Numbered from the stretch's first letter, positions 24,418 to 31,999 are shown. The stretch is DNA of 64,000 nucleotides from Alphaproteobacteria bacterium (GCA_965232515.1 CBDDPY010000002.1:5376001-5440000); one strand, 5' to 3'. Notes: generated by a model from the letters alone, not told the origin. A program made the numbers and translations.

Positions 24418-24603
24418 GCTGCTGCTCCCAGGGGAATTCGCTGTGCTTAGACATAGTTTGACAGGCCGTGCCGGGTCAATCGCCGGCCATGCCGGCGCCG
24501 CGCTCACGCAACGTTGATTTGCCACAGGCGGCCTGTCCCTGGCTCTTGACGTAGGATTTCGGCGATGAATGTCCAAGACCAAAAGACAACAGGAGGCGCG
24601 TTC

Positions 24604-25098
24604 ATGAACATCAAAAGCTCAGGCTTTGTTGCCGGCGCCATCGCGGCGGCCGCACTGCTGGCTTCGGCGGCTCTCGCTGAGAAGGGCGAGATGGGGCCGA
24701 CGGTGATCGAATTCACCCAGACCGGCTGCCAGTTCCTGGAGTCGGAAGGCGGCGTCGATCACGGCTACATGCCGATGACGGCCAAGGACTGCAAGACGAT
24801 CAACGCCCAGACCGGTGGCGAGCGCCTGACCAAGTCCGAGGTGCTGACGCTGAAGCCGGGCAAGTACCTGTTCCGGGTGGCGAACCAGGACGTGCCCTAC
24901 GAACTCGGCTTCTGGCTGCGCGAGCACGACTACGACTGGCGGAATCCGCTGCACAAGGTCAGCAAGATTTCGGTCTCGGGCGGCGGCCTGGTTCAGGGCA
25001 AGGTCAACGAATACGAGGTCGAGCTGAAGCCGGGCGAATACCTCTATTCCTGCCCGCTGAATCCGACGCCGAACTATCGGATCAAGGTCGAAGGTTAG
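24604..25098 (+). CDS. Secreted cupredoxin-like fold protein
   Basis: Signal peptide, [41 protein letters not shown]. Confidence 0.65.
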
Positions 25099-25858: not shown

Positions 25859-25956
25859 TGCCGCCTCCGCGCCGGTCGGCGCCGACCGAGTTCCGGAATG
25901 GTTGACCGGGGCGCCGGTGAACGCAAACATTAGTGCATTCAATTTGGAGCCAAGCA

Positions 25957-26847
25957 ATGCTCAGCGACGCCGACGTCGAATTCTATCGCGAGAACGGCTA
26001 CATCGTGGTGCCGGACGTGGTCTCGGCCGAAGAGATCGCGCGGTTGCGCGCCGTCACCGAGGAGATTGTCGCGCAGTCCCGGCAGGTGCGGGAAAATGAC
26101 GACGTCTACGATCTCGAGGACAGCCATGCGCCGGACCGGCCACGGGTGCGCCGGATCAAGACGCCGCACAAATGGCACGAGGCCTATGCCGCGCTGGTGC
26201 GTCATCCCAACATCGTCGCGGTGCTGCGCCGCCTGATCGGGCCGAACATCCGGTTCGACACGTCCAAGCTGAACATGAAGAGCGAGGCCGGCGGCGCCCC
26301 CGTCGGCTGGCACCAGGACTGGGCCTTCTATCCGCATACCAACGATGATCTCTGCGCGACCGGTCTGATGCTGGACGATGTCGGCCTCGACAATGGGCCG
26401 ATGATGGTGGTGCCCGGCAGCCACCGCGGTCCGACCTACGACCATCACGCCGACGGCTATTTCTGCGGTGCGATCAACGACGATACGGCCGAGGCCGAAT
26501 ATCCCAAGGCGGTACCGCTGACCGGCACGGCCGGATCGCTGACCGTGCACCACGTGCGCATCCTGCACGGCTCGGCGCCGAACCGCTCAAACCGGCCGCG
26601 CCGGTTCCTGCTGCATCAGTATCGCGCCGCCGATGCCTGGCCGCTGTTGGGCTTCGACGACATTGGCCAGTACGACGATCTGATGGTCGCGGGCGAAACG
26701 ACCATCGCGCCGCGTCTCGTGCCGACGCCGGTACGCCTGCCGCTGCCGCCGGCGCCGCACCAGGGCTCGATCTACGAGAACCAGCGCGGTCTGGGTGACA
26801 ATGTCCGCATTCCGGACGACGAACCAAAGAGGGCAGAGGCGACGTAA
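25957..26847 (+). CDS. Phytanoyl-CoA dioxygenase (PhyH) family protein
   Basis: FYRENGY, KLNMK, WHQD, NGPMMVVPGSH, LHGSAPNRS. Confidence 0.92.
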   Translation: MLSDADVEFYRENGYIVVPDVVSAEEIARLRAVTEEIVAQSRQVRENDDVYDLEDSHAPDRPRVRRIKTPHKWHEAYAALVRHPNIVAVLRRLIGPNIRFDTSKLNMKSEAGGAPVGWHQDWAFYPHTNDDLCATGLMLDDVGLDNGPMMVVPGSHRGPTYDHHADGYFCGAINDDTAEAEYPKAVPLTGTAGSLTVHHVRILHGSAPNRSNRPRRFLLHQYRAADAWPLLGFDDIGQYDDLMVAGETTIAPRLVPTPVRLPLPPAPHQGSIYENQRGLGDNVRIPDDEPKRAEAT

Positions 26848-26920: not shown

Positions 26921-27960
26921 GCCCTGAGTTCACAAACGAAGTGCAACACCTTGTGTTGGAGGTGTTGCGATGGGATCCGATTACGCCCAGTTGTCACTGG
27001 AAGAGCGGTGTGAGATTTCCCGCCTTCAAACCGCCGGCCGCTCGATCCGGCAAATCGCGGCAGCTCTGGATCGCGCGCCATCAACAGTCTCTCGCGAACT
27101 GAAACGCAACAGCGGCCGACAGGTCGGCTACAAGCCAGCCTATGCCCAGCAGCAGGCCCGCGCCCGGCGCTGGTCCGGGCCCCGCCTGCAACGCGATCCG
27201 AGCTTGCGCGACCGCGTCCTCGACGGCCTCAAACGCGGCTGGTCGCCGGAACAGGTCGCCGGCCGGCTCGCCCACACCGCCGGCCAACACGTCATCTCGC
27301 ATGAAAGCATCTACCGCTTCGTCTATGCCCAGCTCGCCCGCACCCAGGACTTCCGCTGGCGCCTGCTGCTGCCGCGCGGCAAAAGCAAACGCGGCTGGCG
27401 CGGCCGCAGGGGCGGCAGCCCGGCCAGCTTCATCGCCGGCCGCGTGCCCATCGCCGATCGCCCGGCCGACGTCGACGACCGCACAACCCCGGGACACTGG
27501 GAAGCCGACCTCATGCTGTTCGCGACCTACGGCCAGGCCATCCTCGTCTGCCATGAACGTCTCTCCCGCATCCTCCTCGCCACCCGGCCACCGGGTAAGG
27601 CCGCACAGCCCATCGCAGACCACCTGCACGCCCTGTTCGCCGACCTGCCGCCCGACCTGCGCCAGACCGTCACCTTCGACAACGGCACCGAATTCGCCCG
27701 CCACACCGAACTCCAGCACATCGACATGCAAACCTACTTCTGCGACCCCCATGCCCCCTGGCAGAAGGGCGGCATCGAAAACGCCATCGGCCGCTTCCGA
27801 CGCTTCATCCCCCGAAAGACAAACCTCGACGAGCTCAACCGCCGGCGCCTGCACCAATACCTGCGCGCCTACAACACCACGCCGCGGAAATGCCTTGACT
27901 ACAGAACCCCAGCCGAGGTCTTCATCGAACACCTGTTGCACTTCGAATGTGAATCCACCT
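26921..27960 (+). mobile_element. IS30 family insertion sequence
   Basis: Imperfect terminal IRs TGAGTTCACAAACGAAGTGCAACA (26925-26948) and TGTTGCACTTCGAATGTGAATCCA (27934-27957). Exact ends are uncertain by a few bp. Confidence 0.9.
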
Positions 27961-27980
27961 CCTGGCCTGCGCCAGGATGA
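26970..27980 (+). CDS. IS30 family transposase
   Basis: HTH SIRQIAAALDRAPSTVSRELKRN, WSPEQ, ISHESIY. DDE residues in GHWEADL, TFDNGTEF, WQKGGIEN. Confidence 0.95.
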   Translation: MGSDYAQLSLEERCEISRLQTAGRSIRQIAAALDRAPSTVSRELKRNSGRQVGYKPAYAQQQARARRWSGPRLQRDPSLRDRVLDGLKRGWSPEQVAGRLAHTAGQHVISHESIYRFVYAQLARTQDFRWRLLLPRGKSKRGWRGRRGGSPASFIAGRVPIADRPADVDDRTTPGHWEADLMLFATYGQAILVCHERLSRILLATRPPGKAAQPIADHLHALFADLPPDLRQTVTFDNGTEFARHTELQHIDMQTYFCDPHAPWQKGGIENAIGRFRRFIPRKTNLDELNRRRLHQYLRAYNTTPRKCLDYRTPAEVFIEHLLHFECESTSWPAPG

Positions 27981-28007
27981 CGTGGTTGGGGGTGCGATGC
28001 CCGGAAG

Positions 28008-28781
28008 TTAGCTAGCCCCGGCCTTGCTCAGCGCCTTCGCGACCTGCTTGATCTGGTGGCCGACGGAGACCGGCATCATCGAGGTGATCTCCAGGTCGCG
28101 GTCCTCGTAGGCGTCGGCCTCGGTATGCTTCCGCCGCCAGTCTTCGATGGCTGCGTCGCGCTGGTGCAGCAGCTGCTCGATCTGCGGCCGGAACAGCACC
28201 AGCATAGCCGTGACCCAACGGTTAGTCGGCCATGACGGCCAGGCATGGTCCATGGCGAAACGGTCGAGCAGCCGGATCACGTCGTCGGCTTCATAGAAAG
28301 ACTCGCCCGTGACCCAGCGGTTGGTCGTGAACAGGTGGGTCGGGAAGCCTTTCTTGTCCATCGAGATCGCGATGAGATGGCTGAGGCGTTCGTCGCCCGT
28401 CGGCCACTCGGCCTCACCGTCGTAGGCGACGGGATCGACGCCGGACGGCATGCCCTTCTGGCGCAGAAACGTATGGAAATGGCCGTGCTCGCCCTGTGCG
28501 CCGCGATGGGCGTGATAGTAGTACTGCGAGTGGGTCTCTTTGTCGTAGACATCGCCCTCGGGATAATGGTCCCACTCATAGAAGGTGCCCTGTCCCTTCA
28601 GCACCTCGCCGACGATGTTGGCGTCCACCTTGGTCAATACCCGATAGCACTCGAGCACTTCCTCGCCGGCCTGCCGCATCGCCGTCAGGCGCGCGACCGA
28701 CAGCTCGTCGAAGAGGGATCTCGGCCGGCTCTTGGCCGCCCCGGTCTCGTTCGCCTGCACGATTTCGATCTGTCCTTCCAT
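28008..28781 (-). CDS. His-rich conserved protein of unknown function (DUF6969-like)
   Basis: HYPEGDVYD, QYYYHAH, EHGHFHTF, SHLIAISMD, LFTTNRWVTGE. TGATG coupling to the upstream FGE-like gene, with RBS GAGGGAG. The family name is from recollection. Confidence 0.75.
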   Translation of the reverse strand: MEGQIEIVQANETGAAKSRPRSLFDELSVARLTAMRQAGEEVLECYRVLTKVDANIVGEVLKGQGTFYEWDHYPEGDVYDKETHSQYYYHAHRGAQGEHGHFHTFLRQKGMPSGVDPVAYDGEAEWPTGDERLSHLIAISMDKKGFPTHLFTTNRWVTGESFYEADDVIRLLDRFAMDHAWPSWPTNRWVTAMLVLFRPQIEQLLHQRDAAIEDWRRKHTEADAYEDRDLEITSMMPVSVGHQIKQVAKALSKAGAS

Positions 28782-29632
28782 CACTCCCTCACCAACCTGA
28801 ACCCGATAAGAATATGTTTCAAGGCCTCGGGGCGGGAATGCCGGGCCGCGGGCCGGCAGACGCCGCAGCCGCTGTCGTCCCAGGAACCGCCCTTGACCGT
28901 GTAACGGCCGGCGCCCGCCGCGGTCGCGGTCCACTCGAACACCTGACCGGCCGCGTCGAGCAGGCCGAAGGGACTGGCGCCGTCGGGAAAGCTGCCGACC
29001 GGCATGGTGTCGAAGGGACCGGCGTCGTGGCTGTTCAGCCTCGCCGGTGTGAAGACATCGCCCCAGGGAAAACGCCGCCCGTCCACGCCGCGTGCCGCTT
29101 TCTCCCACTCCGTCTCGCTCGGCAGCCGCCAGGTTTGCCCGGTGCGTTCTGACAGCCAGGCCGCATAGTCCCGCGCGTCGGCGTGGCTGACCAGCACGAC
29201 CGGATGGTCGGCCCGACCCGCCGGCGGTCGGCCGTTTTGCCAGGCGTGACGCCGCGTCCGCTCGAAGGGATGGATCAGGCCATAGCCTTGCCAGACATCG
29301 GGCTGGACATCCGGCGCGCGGTGGCCGGTTTCGGCCACGAAGGCCGCGTACTGGGCATTGGTGATCGGCGTTCGGGTGATCGCGAAGGCTTCCGTCGTGG
29401 CGGTCGCACGAGCCGCCTCGCGGTCGTACCACTTCCACTGCCGGGTCCGAGTGTGTCCGTAAGCCTGCTCGTCCAGGCGATAGCCGGCCTCGCGTTCGAA
29501 GCTGTCGGAACCCATGACGAACGGGCCCGCTGGCACCTCGACCACCGCCGGAATCCCATCGTCGGCCAATGAAGCTCCAGCAAGGCCCAGGCCCAAGATC
29601 ATCAATGCCGGCAAATATCCGCGCACCCGCAA
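28781..29632 (-). CDS. Secreted formylglycine-generating-enzyme (SUMF1/EgtB/PvdO) family protein
   Basis: VPAGPFVMGS, PITNAQYAAF, HPVVLVSH, RLPSETEWEKAARG, FGLLDAAGQVFEW, KGGSW, IGFRLV, plus an N-terminal signal peptide. The start (TTG 29632 or ATG 29602) is uncertain. Confidence 0.88.
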   Translation of the reverse strand: MRVRGYLPALMILGLGLAGASLADDGIPAVVEVPAGPFVMGSDSFEREAGYRLDEQAYGHTRTRQWKWYDREAARATATTEAFAITRTPITNAQYAAFVAETGHRAPDVQPDVWQGYGLIHPFERTRRHAWQNGRPPAGRADHPVVLVSHADARDYAAWLSERTGQTWRLPSETEWEKAARGVDGRRFPWGDVFTPARLNSHDAGPFDTMPVGSFPDGASPFGLLDAAGQVFEWTATAAGAGRYTVKGGSWDDSGCGVCRPAARHSRPEALKHILIGFRLVRE

Positions 29633-29810
29633 TACCCTTGTTTACACATCGGGCCCAAATCCATCGGCGGCCCGTTCTAAGTATAGGAAGCATCGGCCGT
29701 GCTGCATCGCAGCATCACAGACTGTTGAGTGAACTTGACTGGTCTGCCGGGGGCAAACGTAGTCCCCTTAAACGACCAGAAAATCACAAGTTCTGACAGG
29801 AGGCCGGCTC

Positions 29811-31247
29811 ATGCGAGCCCATCGATCAAAACTGCTTTCAACGACTGTTATCCATATGTGTTTCGGTGCCGGCCTTGCCGCGGGTAGCGCCCTGGCGATG
29901 GCGCAAGCGGCGACGGCGGCGGGCACGACGACTGGGCTTGCCAATCCCGATGCCGTCGCCAAACCGACGGCCGGTCTGATCCGCCTCGCGGCCTGCAATC
30001 CGTGCGCGGCCAAGGCATGTAATCCCTGCGCCGCCAAGGCCTGTAATCCTTGTGCGGCGAAGGCTTGCAACCCGTGTGCCGCCAAGGCCTGCAATCCCTG
30101 TGCGGCGAAGGCGTGCAACCCCTGCGCGGCCAAAGCCTGCAACCCGTGCAGTCCGTGTGCGGCCAAGGCTTGCAATCCATGCAATCCCTGCCGTGCGGCG
30201 GCGGCTTGTAATCCCTGCAACCCGTGCAATCCCTGCAACCCGTGCGCGGGCGGTGCGGCTTCGGTCTCGGCCAAGTGTCAGGTGCCGCGCCTGGTGACAG
30301 CGGCGCTGTGCAACCCGTGCGCGGCCAAGGCCTGCAACCCCTGTGCGGCGAAGGCGTGCAATCCTTGCGCCGCGAAAGCCTGTAACCCGTGTGCCGCAAA
30401 GGCCTGCAACCCTTGCGCTGCCAAGGCCTGTAACCCCTGCGCGGCCAAAGCTTGCAACCCGTGCGCCGCGAAGGCGTGCAATCCATGTGCAGCCAAGGCC
30501 TGCAACCCTTGCGCCGCGAAGGCCTGCAACCCGTGTGCGGCCAAGGCCTGCAATCCGTGCCGCGTGGCCAAGGCCTGCAATCCCTGCGCGGCCAAAGCTT
30601 GCAACCCGTGCAATCCGTGTGCGGCCAAGAAGGCCTGCAATCCGTGCAACCCCTGCGCGGCCAAGGCCTGCAACCCCTGCAATCCGTGTGCGGCAAATGC
30701 CTGCAATCCTTGCAACCCGTGCGGACCTTGCGGCGCGGCCGAGGCGCCGGAGCTGAGCACCGCCGAAGTGCGGGCGGCCTACGACTGCCTGCGCGGCGAG
30801 ATGGTCGCGGGCTATGCCAAGTCGGGCATGCAGACCGCCAGCTTCTACAAGGACTGGGCGATCTACAACTCCCAGCCCTACGTCTCCGACACGCATGGCG
30901 GCCGGTTCGTCAACAACTACACCAATGTCGTCGGCAGCCAGAAGTACGGCAAGTACGAGGACGCCGGCCGCATGCCGGTGGGCGCGATGATGGCGAAGGA
31001 CAGCTTCGTCGTGCGCCCGGACGGCAAGATGGCCTCGGGTCCGTTGTTCCTCATGGAGAAGATGCCGGCCGGCTTCAACAAGGAAAGCGGCAACTGGCGC
31101 TACACCATGGTCATGGCGGACGGCGCCGTGTTCGGCACCACCAACGGCCAGGGCTCGAACAACGTGAAGTTCTGCATCGAATGCCACGCGGCGGTGGCGG
31201 AAGATCAGGACAGCGTGTTCTTCCTGCCGGAGGAGTATCGGAACTAG
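29811..31247 (+). CDS. Exported Cys-rich (CNPCAAKA)n repeat protein fused to a cytochrome P460-family heme c domain
   Basis: RBS AGGAGG, signal peptide (..AQA), two repeat blocks. The C-terminal domain has [22 protein letters not shown] and a late CIECH heme motif. Confidence 0.85.
29994..30731 (+). repeat. 24-bp/9-bp coding tandem repeats (CNPCAAKA / NPC) in two blocks
   Basis: Block 1 is 29994-30245 (23 Cys) and block 2 is 30309-30731 (37 Cys). Confidence 0.95.
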
Positions 31248-31301
31248 TTGGCGGTTCGGGCGGCTGGATGTACCGGCCGCCCGCCCTGCCGATCACGGGA
31301 G

Positions 31302-31328
31302 AAAGCGGCGTTTCGACGCCGCTTTTTT
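31302..31328 (+). terminator. Intrinsic terminator
   Basis: AAAGCGGCGT-TTCG-ACGCCGCTTTTTT. Confidence 0.8.
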
Positions 31329-31390
31329 CATTGTCGACGGCGCGGGACAGGTAGACTTCGTCGAACCAAACAACAGACGAGGCCGATGCC

Positions 31391-31999
31391 GTGGCGACTG
31401 TGACGTTCTATTTCGACTGTTCCAGCCCCTGGACCTATCTGGGCTTTCATCGTTTTCTGCCGCTCGCCGACGAACTTGGCGTGACCGTCGACTGGCGGCC
31501 GATCCTGGTTGGCGGCGTGTTCAACACGGTCAATCCCAGCGTCTATCAGAGCCGCGAGAACCCGGTCCCGGCGAAGCAGGCCTATATGCTCAAGGACCTG
31601 CAGGACTGGGCCCGCTTTACCGGTATCGAGATCGTCTGGCCGCCCGGCATCTTTCCGATCAACAGCGTCAAGGCCATGCGCGGCTGCATCCACGCCGACC
31701 GGCAGGGCCGCCTGGTGCCGTTCGCGACGGCGGTGTTCGAGGCCTATTGGGGCGCCGATCGCGATATCGCCAACGAGGCCGTGTTGTCCGAGCTCGCGAC
31801 GACGGCCGGGCTCGATGCCGACGCGTTGCTGGCGGCCATCGCGTCGCCCGACATCAAACAGGCGCTGCGCGAGAACACCGACGAACTGATCGGGCGCGGC
31901 GGCTTCGGCACGCCGACGATCTTCATCGACGACGATATGTATTTCGGCAACGACCGCCTGCCGCTGATCCGCGCCGCGCTTGAACGCGCGGCCGCTTGA
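31391..31999 (+). CDS. 2-hydroxychromene-2-carboxylate isomerase / DsbA-like (kappa GST) protein
   Basis: FYFDCSSPWTY, WRPILVGGVF, GGFGTPT, YFGNDRL. Confidence 0.9.
   Translation: MATVTFYFDCSSPWTYLGFHRFLPLADELGVTVDWRPILVGGVFNTVNPSVYQSRENPVPAKQAYMLKDLQDWARFTGIEIVWPPGIFPINSVKAMRGCIHADRQGRLVPFATAVFEAYWGADRDIANEAVLSELATTAGLDADALLAAIASPDIKQALRENTDELIGRGGFGTPTIFIDDDMYFGNDRLPLIRAALERAAA

Follow-up and report, generated by a model that had tools for sequence, protein, structure and literature searches.

Secreted Asn-Pro-Cys arrays on a cytochrome P460-fold haem protein form a conserved three-gene module with an FGE-like protein and DUF6969

We analysed a 64,000-nucleotide stretch of an alphaproteobacterial genome (GCA_965232515.1, CBDDPY010000002.1:5376001-5440000; hereafter the window) and found that the locus at its positions 28008 to 31328 is a conserved three-gene module. 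One gene encodes P0001, a protein with a signal peptide, two dense arrays of Asn-Pro-Cys (NPC) units and a single-haem domain of the cytochrome P460/c'-beta fold. Facing it across a divergent intergenic region lie two overlapping genes, for a secreted protein of the FGE-sulfatase fold (FGE, formylglycine-generating enzyme) and for a His-rich protein of family DUF6969. Its probable task, carried out outside the cytoplasm, is to deal with metals like copper or with reactive compounds of sulfur or nitrogen. NPC arrays themselves are a widespread secreted module in Proteobacteria, found alone or fused to either a P460 domain or a SoxA/TsdA-type cytochrome c. An initial annotation of the window had already described the repeat gene as coding for a signal peptide, two blocks holding 60 Cys and a single-haem domain, and the open reading frame (ORF), the Cys count and a match to Pfam family PF16694 bear this out. 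The features are collected in Table 1.

Table 1. Positions of the module's genes, protein segments and signals in the window
Feature	Position	Strand	Basis or remark
NPC-array/cytochrome P460-fold protein gene (P0001)	29811..31247	+	478-aa ORF and translation
Signal peptide, residues ~1-33	29811..29909	+	hydrophobic N-terminus, read by eye
Cys array block 1, residues 62-145	29994..30245	+	CNPCAAKA and NPC units, 23 Cys
Conserved spacer between arrays, residues 146-166	30246..30308	+	one Cys (C156)
Cys array block 2, residues 167-308	30309..30734	+	37 Cys
Cytochrome P460/c'-beta-fold haem domain	30735..31244	+	PF16694; profile and Foldseek matches
Secreted FGE-sulfatase-fold protein gene	28781..29632	-	PF03781; 283 aa from TTG 29632, likelier start GTG 29626
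DUF6969 protein gene	28008..28781	-	PF22308; 257 aa, no signal peptide
Divergent intergenic region	29633..29810	.	178 bp, between FGE-like gene and P0001
Palindrome TGCTGC-N3-GCAGCA	29700-29714	.	common to window and L028-L031
Motif ATCAC... adjoining palindrome	29714-29744	.	common to window and L028-L031
Intrinsic terminator	31298..31335	+	GC-rich hairpin and U-run; folding

The case for a module rests on its conservation. We examined 17 loci (L028-L044) in other genomes where DUF6969 and a P460-domain match share a contig, and all three genes were present in every one. Sixteen keep the window's arrangement; the seventeenth, L044, from another taxonomic family, is reshuffled yet complete, with the FGE-like gene on the minus strand followed by the P460 and DUF6969 genes on the plus strand. 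Flanking genes vary among the 17 loci. The initial annotation had staked its proposal on such a shared neighbourhood in other genomes, and the neighbourhood was there. Among 41 relatives, 24 carry DUF6969 and 23 a close P460-domain match, and the two lie within ~3 kb of each other in 18 genomes, the window's own included. In four of the remaining six DUF6969-positive genomes (G002, G008, G019, G040) the assembly is fragmented, with the matches split between contigs or lying at contig edges; a fifth (G012) is 71% complete, and the last (G032) has no close P460 match but does have NPC arrays. Of the 41 genomes, 25 contain a back-translated DNA pattern for NPCAAK; none contains the reversed pattern used as control. 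DUF6969 and NPCAAK occur together in 23 genomes; 2 have just the NPC pattern, 1 has just DUF6969 and 15 have neither, counts that are not independent since the 41 relatives are kin to each other.

The arrays account for most of the unusual composition of P0001. Of the protein's 65 Cys, the two blocks account for exactly 60 (23 in block 1 and 37 in block 2); the signal peptide and the spacer have 1 each, and the C-terminal domain has 3. NPC motifs number 33. A GGAGG ribosome-binding site lies at 29799-29805, 6 nt 5' of the start codon, and the N-terminal pattern M..HKS.LLS.T...GAG.AAG is kept among orthologues. The 18 perfect CNPCAAKA units are written in 18 distinct DNA versions with a mean pairwise identity of 0.82, all differences being synonymous, and Tandem Repeats Finder recovers the 24-bp units at a match of only 78-80%. 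Because 18 identical peptides have 18 synonymous spellings, the repeat is held at the peptide level and is no slippage artefact, which marks the arrays as a genuine feature under selection. The initial annotation had likened the blocks to CxxC arrays. Many relatives of P0001 carry a single Cys per unit, as (ANPCA)n, so the conserved unit is NPC rather than CxxC. In a homologue search that covered proteins of 262-837 aa only and favoured long forms, 112 of the 120 listed P460-domain homologues had at least two NPC motifs, and up to 37. In two of the relatives, P0121 and P0123, the (ANPCA)n repeats sit within a loop of the P460 domain instead of preceding it. A Pfam scan of the whole protein gave just a spurious low-complexity "Cornifin" match.

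In a whole-protein AlphaFold2 (AF2) model built from 47 sequences, both arrays fall below a pLDDT of 50 and are predicted to be disordered. The spacer between them scores 85-95 and is predicted to fold, with a strand (152-157) followed by a helix (159-167), and to dock; its motif K-C-x-[IV]-P-R-L-x-T-A-A is kept in orthologues. Crude regular-expression counts found spacer and domain Cys (C156 and C326 of P0001) together in 73 cases, the spacer only in 6 (several of them misses of the expression), the Cys only in 22 and neither in 12, a distribution compatible with a C156-C326 disulfide joining spacer and domain. We also considered the CxxPR of the spacer as a recognition site for the FGE-like protein and dropped it: the spacer is predicted to be folded and docked, and one-block orthologues have no spacer. 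The source genome holds a second NPC gene (G000:C2:6541477-6541740; L128:3978-4241, + strand), which encodes an 87-aa secreted, repeat-only protein; it lies 1.1 Mb from the module and adjoins a gene for a 957-aa TPR protein.

The C-terminal 170 aa of P0001 match Pfam Cytochrome_P460 (PF16694) at 37.3 bits (cut-off 27), only when scanned alone, and hold a single CxxCH (C455-H459) near the C-terminus. A single-sequence search of this piece against Protein Data Bank (PDB) chains gave 0 matches and was superseded by a profile search: a profile of the domain and its paralogues (alignment A3) matched the cytochrome c'-beta 7s5o at 70.7 bits (E 1.1e-18) and the P460 2je2 at 41.7 bits (E 8.7e-10). Residues 310-478 have a pLDDT above 90 in the whole-protein AF2 model, and all 18 Foldseek matches in the PDB at E<=0.001 are P460 or c'-beta proteins. 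Pfam, profile and Foldseek thus agree on the cytochrome P460 assignment made in the initial annotation.

Two positions in this domain define its predicted chemistry. Lys396, in the motif LAKDSF, is invariant in 47 of 47 sequences and aligns to Met79 of 7s5o (NeCP-beta) and Phe61 of McCP-beta, a position that a table in the available text of a recent review equates with the cross-linking Lys70/78/106 of true P460s (PMC11928373). P0001 accordingly has a Lys at the haem cross-link position (Lys70 of NeP460, Lys78 of McP460), as P460s proper do. The same text describes a distal carboxylate, Glu96 in NeP460 and Asp102 in McP460, as needed for NH2OH oxidation (PMC11928373). At this position P0001 has Phe413, corresponding to Ala109 of 7s5o and Gly82 of McCP-beta; the position is invariant in alignment A4 and is F in 110 of 121 homologues by a regular-expression count. 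The haem domain is predicted to be a Lys-cross-linked, ligand-binding P460 that does not oxidize NH2OH, like the protein of Nitrosomonas sp. AL212, because Lys396 is present and the distal carboxylate is replaced by Phe413. The initial annotation had ascribed NH2OH/NO handling to P460 cytochromes; of this, the oxidation of NH2OH does not fit the prediction. The source genome has 7 P460-domain matches, among them a repeat-free paralogue of the same subfamily. Moreover, 8 of the 120 homologues (P0094, P0097, P0101, P0103, P0104, P0113, P0114 and P0118) join an adenylate/guanylate cyclase (PF00211) and a membrane helix to a periplasmic P460-like domain and carry no repeats, which suggests, from domain architecture, that the subfamily can serve as a ligand-binding or sensor domain.

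These features bear on one alternative function for the module, a sink for NO or NH2OH in which the P460 haem would bind NO or hydroxylamine and the thiols would trap or reduce it, through S-nitrosation and then disulfide formation, shielding the periplasm. The P460 fold, the Lys at the cross-link position and the cyclase-fused homologues, with their suggestion of small-ligand binding, are what one would expect of such a sink, as are DUF6969 loci in genomes labelled as nitrifiers (Nitrosomonas); characterized members of the family bind NO and NH2OH, according to the available text of the review (PMC11928373). However, the carboxylate for NH2OH oxidation has given way to Phe413, and elsewhere the arrays sit on a different cytochrome c or on nothing, so their role is not tied to P460 chemistry. 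Upstream, no NO-related genes were found, and none of 17 upstream sequences has an FNR/NnrR-type box except for one two-mismatch site in L039. We consider this function improbable.

The FGE-like protein matches PF03781 over its full length at 160.9 bits, which places it in the FGE-sulfatase domain family, and its stop codon TGA overlaps the ATG of DUF6969 in a TGATG, both as the initial annotation had stated. A hydrophobic N-terminal stretch is present in 15 of 16 alignment rows (A2), the L044 row being cut at the N-terminus, and we infer that this partner is periplasmic. Its GGSW...RPAAR loop contains C256-G-V-C259, with C256 kept in 16 of 16 rows and C259 in 15 of 16; we take this loop to be the place of the catalytic Cu-binding Cys pair of FGEs. 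Solved FGEs were not among the top alignments displayed. The nearest solved relatives are ToxD (123 bits), CalU17 (98 bits) and SUMF2, with FGEs at 46-68 bits. In NCBIfam the protein falls under every cut-off for the PvdO, SenA, EgtB, OvoA and GldK/PorK subfamilies, the best scores being 71.6 against 500 for PvdO, 60.7 against 420 for SenA and 56.8 against 360 for EgtB.

The third protein, in which the initial annotation had picked out the motifs YYYHAH, EHGHFH and SH, belongs to DUF6969 (PF22308, 300.3 bits; cut-off 27). Seven His (H72, H90, H92, H99, H101, H103, H135) and four acidic residues (E69, E98, D77, D80) are invariant in 16 sequences (alignment A1), and the AF2 model (pLDDT 83.7, pTM 0.86) places the HxH and HxHxH motifs on neighbouring strands. 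Foldseek returned no match to this model at E<=0.001, VIA-align gave a best Z of 6.7 over 55 residues (the helical hairpin of ribosomal protein L29), which is noise for helical pieces, and the sequence had 0 matches among PDB chains. Matches in the ESM Atlas are exclusively DUF6969 clusters; the PF22308 family comprises 1255 representative clusters at E<=0.001. The alignment shows no N-terminal hydrophobic stretch. Among P0148, P0200 and P0145, rare fusions (625 and 633 aa) run from DUF6969 through ~250 aa of coiled coil and one membrane helix to an SH3_3 domain, and a tandem duplication of DUF6969 (497 aa) was found too. Because the protein has no signal peptide and the fusions have this order, DUF6969 is most likely cytoplasmic. 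The initial annotation's picture of a periplasmic module thus holds for the repeat protein and the FGE-like protein, which are secreted, but probably not for DUF6969.

We then looked beyond the window's relatives. In species-representative genomes a pattern scan located at least 554 loci with DUF6969, of which the best 80 were analysed; these are labelled as alpha-, beta- and gammaproteobacteria and include Nitrosomonas, Gallionella, Sideroxydans, Hyphomicrobium, Sneathiella and Pelagibius. Counting ORFs with at least 4 NPC motifs within 3.5 kb of DUF6969, and taking more than 50% identity as FGE-like, we found an NPC ORF in 51 of the 80 loci, an FGE-like gene in 27, both in 20 and neither in 22, so that the co-occurrence foreseen by the initial annotation extends to these wider loci. 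Among the 48 loci with full flanks, the respective numbers were 30, 15, 11 and 14. The NPC ORFs fall into three groups: secreted proteins that are small and consist of repeats only (34 loci), fusions with P460 (16, and 2 partial), and arrays flanking a cytochrome c that matches PF21342 SoxA-TsdA_cyt-c at 35-47 bits (cut-off 27; 13 loci). A further 5 loci have an unclassified haem motif. Many loci have a small NPC-only protein of 87-130 aa ahead of DUF6969. In beta- and gammaproteobacteria DUF6969 follows straight after the small NPC-only gene, with gaps of 0-120 bp, and the usual order is NPC-cytochrome, NPC-only, DUF6969, often continued by a protein of a secreted family also encoded at 24565-25098 of the window, then DUF302 and a YeeE/Sulf_transp permease. 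Recurrent neighbours across the 80 loci are YeeE/Sulf_transp (13), DUF302 (13), secreted rhodanese (7) and DsbD_TM (6). We also inspected five genomes whose DUF6969 locus has no NPC genes, and four of them have arrays elsewhere.

A sample of 300 further genomes of the phylum, each at least 90% complete, showed how far arrays and DUF6969 occur apart. DUF6969 is present in 9. In four of these NPC hits lie beside it (arrays in G206 and G152, lone hits within ~100 bp in G283 and G312); G069 has arrays elsewhere, G143 has hits whose place is not listed, and three have none beyond chance. The loose DNA pattern for NPC pairs is noisy, since 160 of 301 genomes show one hit or more, and hence we set the threshold at 5 or more hits on one strand. 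In one contig (G051 C1), a dispersed and unrelated intergenic repeat, AACCC.TGCTC.CTTAA...CCCTGC, matched the pattern by chance ~37 times. At this threshold 43 of the 300 genomes have hits, 34 of them from a single family, f50, in none of whose genomes DUF6969 occurs. Translation of four f50 genomes verified real arrays, with NPCNPC-[AS]MK[HK]KM units; in these 2-3 Mb genomes (L145/G094, L146/G134, L136, L138) the arrays form small, NPC-only secreted proteins and SoxA/TsdA-type cytochromes. In the two f50 loci with flanks (L145/G094, L146/G134), an MtrC-like multihaem cytochrome follows the NPC cytochrome, and one f50 locus has an extracytoplasmic function (ECF) sigma/anti-sigma pair, an aquaglyceroporin with a His-rich N-terminus and an S-adenosylmethionine methyltransferase nearby. 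Because many NPC genomes have no DUF6969, DUF6969 is not an obligatory maturase of NPC proteins; it looks like an accessory of them without being a universal requirement.

Lineages other than the window's also have linkers between NPC units that are rich in Met and His, such as NPCNPCAMKHKM and NPCAAMKPMG. Met, His and Cys are typical ligand sets of Cu(I) and Ag(I). A further hint of metal binding is that redox haem domains are joined to the arrays or lie next to them. The reading that we tentatively favour is that disordered thiol arrays capture thiophilic species, Cu(I) or another soft metal foremost, and are wired to a haem, with the FGE-like protein and DUF6969 as accessory maturation factors. 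The Sec-exported P0001 carries two Lys-rich NPC arrays, predicted to be disordered and with 60 thiols, which flank the spacer and lead into a domain with one c-type haem. The arrays could act as flexible poly-thiolate "tentacles" for Cu(I) or another soft metal or metalloid, cycling between thiol(ate), ligand-bound and disulfide states, while the attached open-site haem would move electrons or sense the load. The secreted FGE-like protein, of a Cu/O2-dependent Cys-oxidizing family, might act on the first Cys of C-x-P-C units, and DUF6969 might act on the NPC proteins before export or service them. We rank a soft metal first because of the Met/His/Cys linkers, the copper-enzyme family to which FGEs belong, and two precedents: published fusions of bufferin, cytochrome c and FGE domains, and Sec-exported Cys-repeat copper binders.

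One could also read the arrays as peptides made on ribosomes and then modified post-translationally (RiPPs) in the strict sense, which, once modified, would be cut off the haem domain and set free as small metallophore peptides. This would resemble the logic of bufferins, and the 87-130 aa secreted proteins upstream of DUF6969 in many loci, like the one elsewhere in the source genome, would suit it. We regard this as very unlikely, however: neither a protease nor a transporter is encoded in the module, nor any family known for RiPP recognition or maturation, MNIO genes are missing from the genome, and in-frame fusion ties the arrays to a folded haem domain on one flank or on both.

The neighbours of distant NPC genes suggest a different cargo. 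Array Cys might hold sulfane or thiosulfonate sulfur in the manner of the SoxY arm, or form disulfides attacked by sulfide or polythionates; the attached haem, P460 here and SoxA/TsdA-type elsewhere, would then carry out oxidative S-S chemistry, and YeeE transporters and rhodaneses would complete the pathway. We consider such a sulfur carrier or oxidizer doubtful, though well worth weighing against soft-metal capture. The PF21342 domain is flanked by NPC arrays in the 13 loci noted above, and YeeE/Sulf_transp, secreted rhodanese and DsbD_TM recur near DUF6969; these are accessory families of sox clusters too. An open, five-coordinate haem beside 60 thiolates might also be readily Cys-ligated. 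Against this, the window's family keeps three genes only, and no YeeE, rhodanese or Sox gene was seen within ~7 kb in L028-L044, a comparison that covered the window's own neighbours only. Weak PDB matches cover the CxxCH region of the cytochrome c domain; among them solved SoxA (E 0.005-0.03) does no better than CCP/MauG, and the Met- and His-rich linkers suit metal ligation better. DUF6969 loci, moreover, come from genomes labelled Nitrosomonas and Gallionella among others, which are not known as classic sulfur oxidizers.

How the two partners associate with the arrays bears on whether they act on them. The target motif of FGE is CxPxR, with C-x-P as its core. Where the FGE-like gene is present, C-x-P-C makes up at least 0.3 of the NPC units in 18 of 20 loci (median 0.635), including the gammaproteobacterial L065 and L068; where it is absent, this is so in 11 of 31 loci (median 0.11). 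The FGE-like gene thus tracks arrays of the C-x-P-C type. For DUF6969, we predicted a complex with residues 40-110 of P0001, which scored 0.39 against 0.02 for the best of three controls. As a benchmark, that score is attained by 58 of the 80 solved complexes compared and by 2 of the 110 pairs that were mismatched; 7 of the 80 and both mismatches attain it without exceeding 0.60. The contacts agreed by at least 11% between runs, and the partner's pLDDT was at least 29. This model lends weak support to a complex of DUF6969 with an array.

Several observations weigh against soft-metal capture with these two accessory factors. The correlation between the FGE-like gene and C-x-P-C is confounded by kinship, as FGE-positive loci are mostly alphaproteobacterial, and complex scores of this kind are "more often wrong than right" unless the pairing is likely beforehand. 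The FGE-like gene is absent from 53 of the 80 loci, in 22 of the 80 DUF6969 stands without an NPC ORF or an FGE-like gene within 3.5 kb, and in the phylum sample just 4 of the 43 array-bearing genomes have DUF6969. Copper-resistance and copper-regulator genes are absent among the recurrent neighbours of the 80 loci, and those that do recur point to sulfur.

Such points could also mean that these are ordinary parts with no joint function. A P460-family cytochrome would use the arrays, disordered and prone to disulfides, as a linker or as an anchor at the surface; the FGE-like gene would mature sulfatases encoded elsewhere in the genome, and DUF6969 would be an unrelated housekeeping protein that is nearby by chance or through shared regulation. 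The predicted disorder of the arrays accords with this, as do the many NPC genomes without DUF6969, the repeat-free P460-domain paralogue in the same genome, and the genome's 9 sulfatase matches and several other FGE-domain genes. Yet none of those 9 sulfatase matches lies within the window, and the FGE-like gene tracks C-x-P-C arrays. The trio outlasts rearrangement and changed flanks on both sides, DUF6969 stands directly behind small NPC-only genes in beta- and gammaproteobacteria, and selection at the peptide level holds 18 identical units despite their synonymous divergence. We therefore judge a chance assembly of ordinary parts to be rather unlikely.

A more far-reaching reading, which we also think unlikely, is a new two-step maturation of NPC arrays. 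DUF6969, as a cytoplasmic His-cluster metalloenzyme, would modify or load the Asn-Pro-Cys units before Sec export; in the periplasm, the FGE-like protein, as a Cu-dependent oxidase, would then turn the first Cys of C-x-P-C into formylglycine or another oxidized form. If true, the product would be a polymer of a new sort, assembled by post-translational steps, able to bind metal or to be cross-linked, and firmly joined to a haem of P460 or SoxA/TsdA type; it would be widespread in Proteobacteria, genomes labelled Nitrosomonas and Gallionella among them.

The locus carries signals of its own. The terminator that the initial annotation had placed after the repeat gene is present as a hairpin (31298-31329) of -22.1 kcal/mol with a U-run (z -4.97; 0 of 200 shuffles fold as well), and the divergent region it had put at ~180 bp measures 178 bp. 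A simple promoter and terminator scan reported 0 terminators, missing the hairpin, and 1 promoter-like site, inside a gene. In another genus, the equivalent upstream place reads TCACGGAAGTTTGAG...GATGTGACTCGTC and resembles an ECF-sigma promoter (GGAAGT-N16-CGTC); k-mers of this motif occur in 7-8 of 17 upstream sequences against a shuffle maximum of 3-4, as exact k-mer counts among related sequences. When 27900-31450 is divided into 30 bins, contigs of one RNA-seq library (X4) cover 28 of them, at 95-99% identity, those of a second library of the same study (X6) cover 9, and one contig, 29418-30038, crosses the divergent region; this suggests that the module is transcribed, with possible carry-over since RNA libraries may contain DNA.

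On the DUF6969 side, an IS30-type transposase gene (HTH_38 and rve; 26970-27980, + strand) separates the end of DUF6969 from a PhyH gene (25933-26847). L028, the closest relative, has a PhyH-DUF6969 gap of only ~30 bp and no IS30 insertion in it; the insertion in the window breaks no module gene. The gene at 24565-25098 (+ strand) encodes a 177-aa secreted protein without a Pfam family and lies ~2.9 kb from the window's DUF6969. Members of its family occur in 10 of the 80 wider loci, in several of them a few hundred bp downstream of DUF6969, and were not seen in L029-L044. Directly 3' of the terminator, a gene at 31391-31999 (+ strand) encodes a DsbA-like, thioredoxin-fold protein (PF01323, 148 bits). 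Its homologue is an immediate neighbour in L028 (92% identity) and in L042 (63%), and in most loci of another genus one with 30-35% identity is found at a distance of 1-5 kb. A role for this gene in handling the 60 thiols is possible.

When compared with known systems, the module fails membership of the bufferin, Sox and FGE-proper systems and matches P460 at the domain level only; the trio belongs to no described system, so far as literature outside subscription journals and supplements goes. In that literature no paper turned up that treats DUF6969, combines P460 with Cys-rich repeats or with formylglycine, or contains the peptide words of the repeat. With the P460/c'-beta superfamily (2je2, 7s5o and the M. 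capsulatus proteins), P0001 shares the fold, the single CxxCH near the C-terminus and the Lys at the cross-link position. It differs in the ~250 aa of Cys arrays and the docked spacer ahead of the domain, and in the Phe that replaces the distal Glu/Asp of NH2OH-oxidizing enzymes, where it resembles the inactive protein of Nitrosomonas sp. AL212. The available text of the 2025 review of P460s does not contain the words "repeat", "fusion", "cyclase" or "N-terminal" (PMC11928373). For this field, the subfamily would add a large branch that has the cross-link Lys, is without the catalytic carboxylate and is fused to dozens of thiols or to cyclases, which would imply roles beyond hydroxylamine oxidation.

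The FGE-like protein shares with FGE/SUMF1, which acts on CxPxR, the PF03781 fold, secretion, two Cys in what is probably the loop of the catalytic pair and dozens of C-x-P units next door. Unlike FGE proper, it spaces these Cys as CxxC and is closer to ToxD and CalU17, its arrays have no Arg at +4, and no sulfatase is nearby. SoxAX-SoxYZ and TsdA likewise place Cys thiols on flexible arms beside a c-type haem, and in the window's relatives only, the likeness extends to SoxA/TsdA-type NPC cytochromes and neighbours of the YeeE, rhodanese and DsbD types. However, P0001 has a P460 domain, no SoxY GGCGG arm, SoxB or SoxCD was seen among the scanned neighbours, and the likeness does not go beyond gene families. 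A comparably high Cys density (here 60 Cys in ~250 aa) is shared by bacterial metallothioneins and copper storage proteins. P0001, in contrast, is exported, is fused to a haem, and is predicted to be disordered rather than a folded cluster or helix bundle; no metallothionein or copper-storage family of Pfam or NCBIfam matched it.

The NPC array would be defined as a new, widespread building block of secreted bacterial proteins, and the module would give the first functional context for DUF6969 with its 1255 representative clusters. The occurrence of DUF6969 loci in marine alphaproteobacteria and in genomes labelled Nitrosomonas, Gallionella and Sideroxydans suggests a general periplasmic handling of soft metals or of reactive sulfur and nitrogen species. 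A conceptual parallel is to the bufferins and oxazolins, which are described as MNIO-modified, Sec-exported, Cys-repeat copper-binding RiPP proteins (PMC11626156, PMC12452194; available text). The latter source reports Sec signal peptides, copper binding and up to 58 Cys in Buf_EGKCG, as well as Buf1/Cytochrome_C/FGE-sulfatase fusions (PMC12452194), and its available text makes no mention of NPC, P460 or DUF6969. The module resembles bufferins in having a Sec signal peptide, read by eye, instead of a leader peptide, many Cys in short repeats, and an adjacent gene for a putatively cytoplasmic, metal-binding protein, here DUF6969. It differs in its repeat motif, NPC, and in its partner, whose model matches no solved fold. 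Because the whole source genome, 96% complete, has no match to MNIO (PF05114/DUF692), the module is not a bufferin system; for the metallophore and RiPP field it would represent a second, MNIO-independent route to Sec-exported Cys-repeat proteins.

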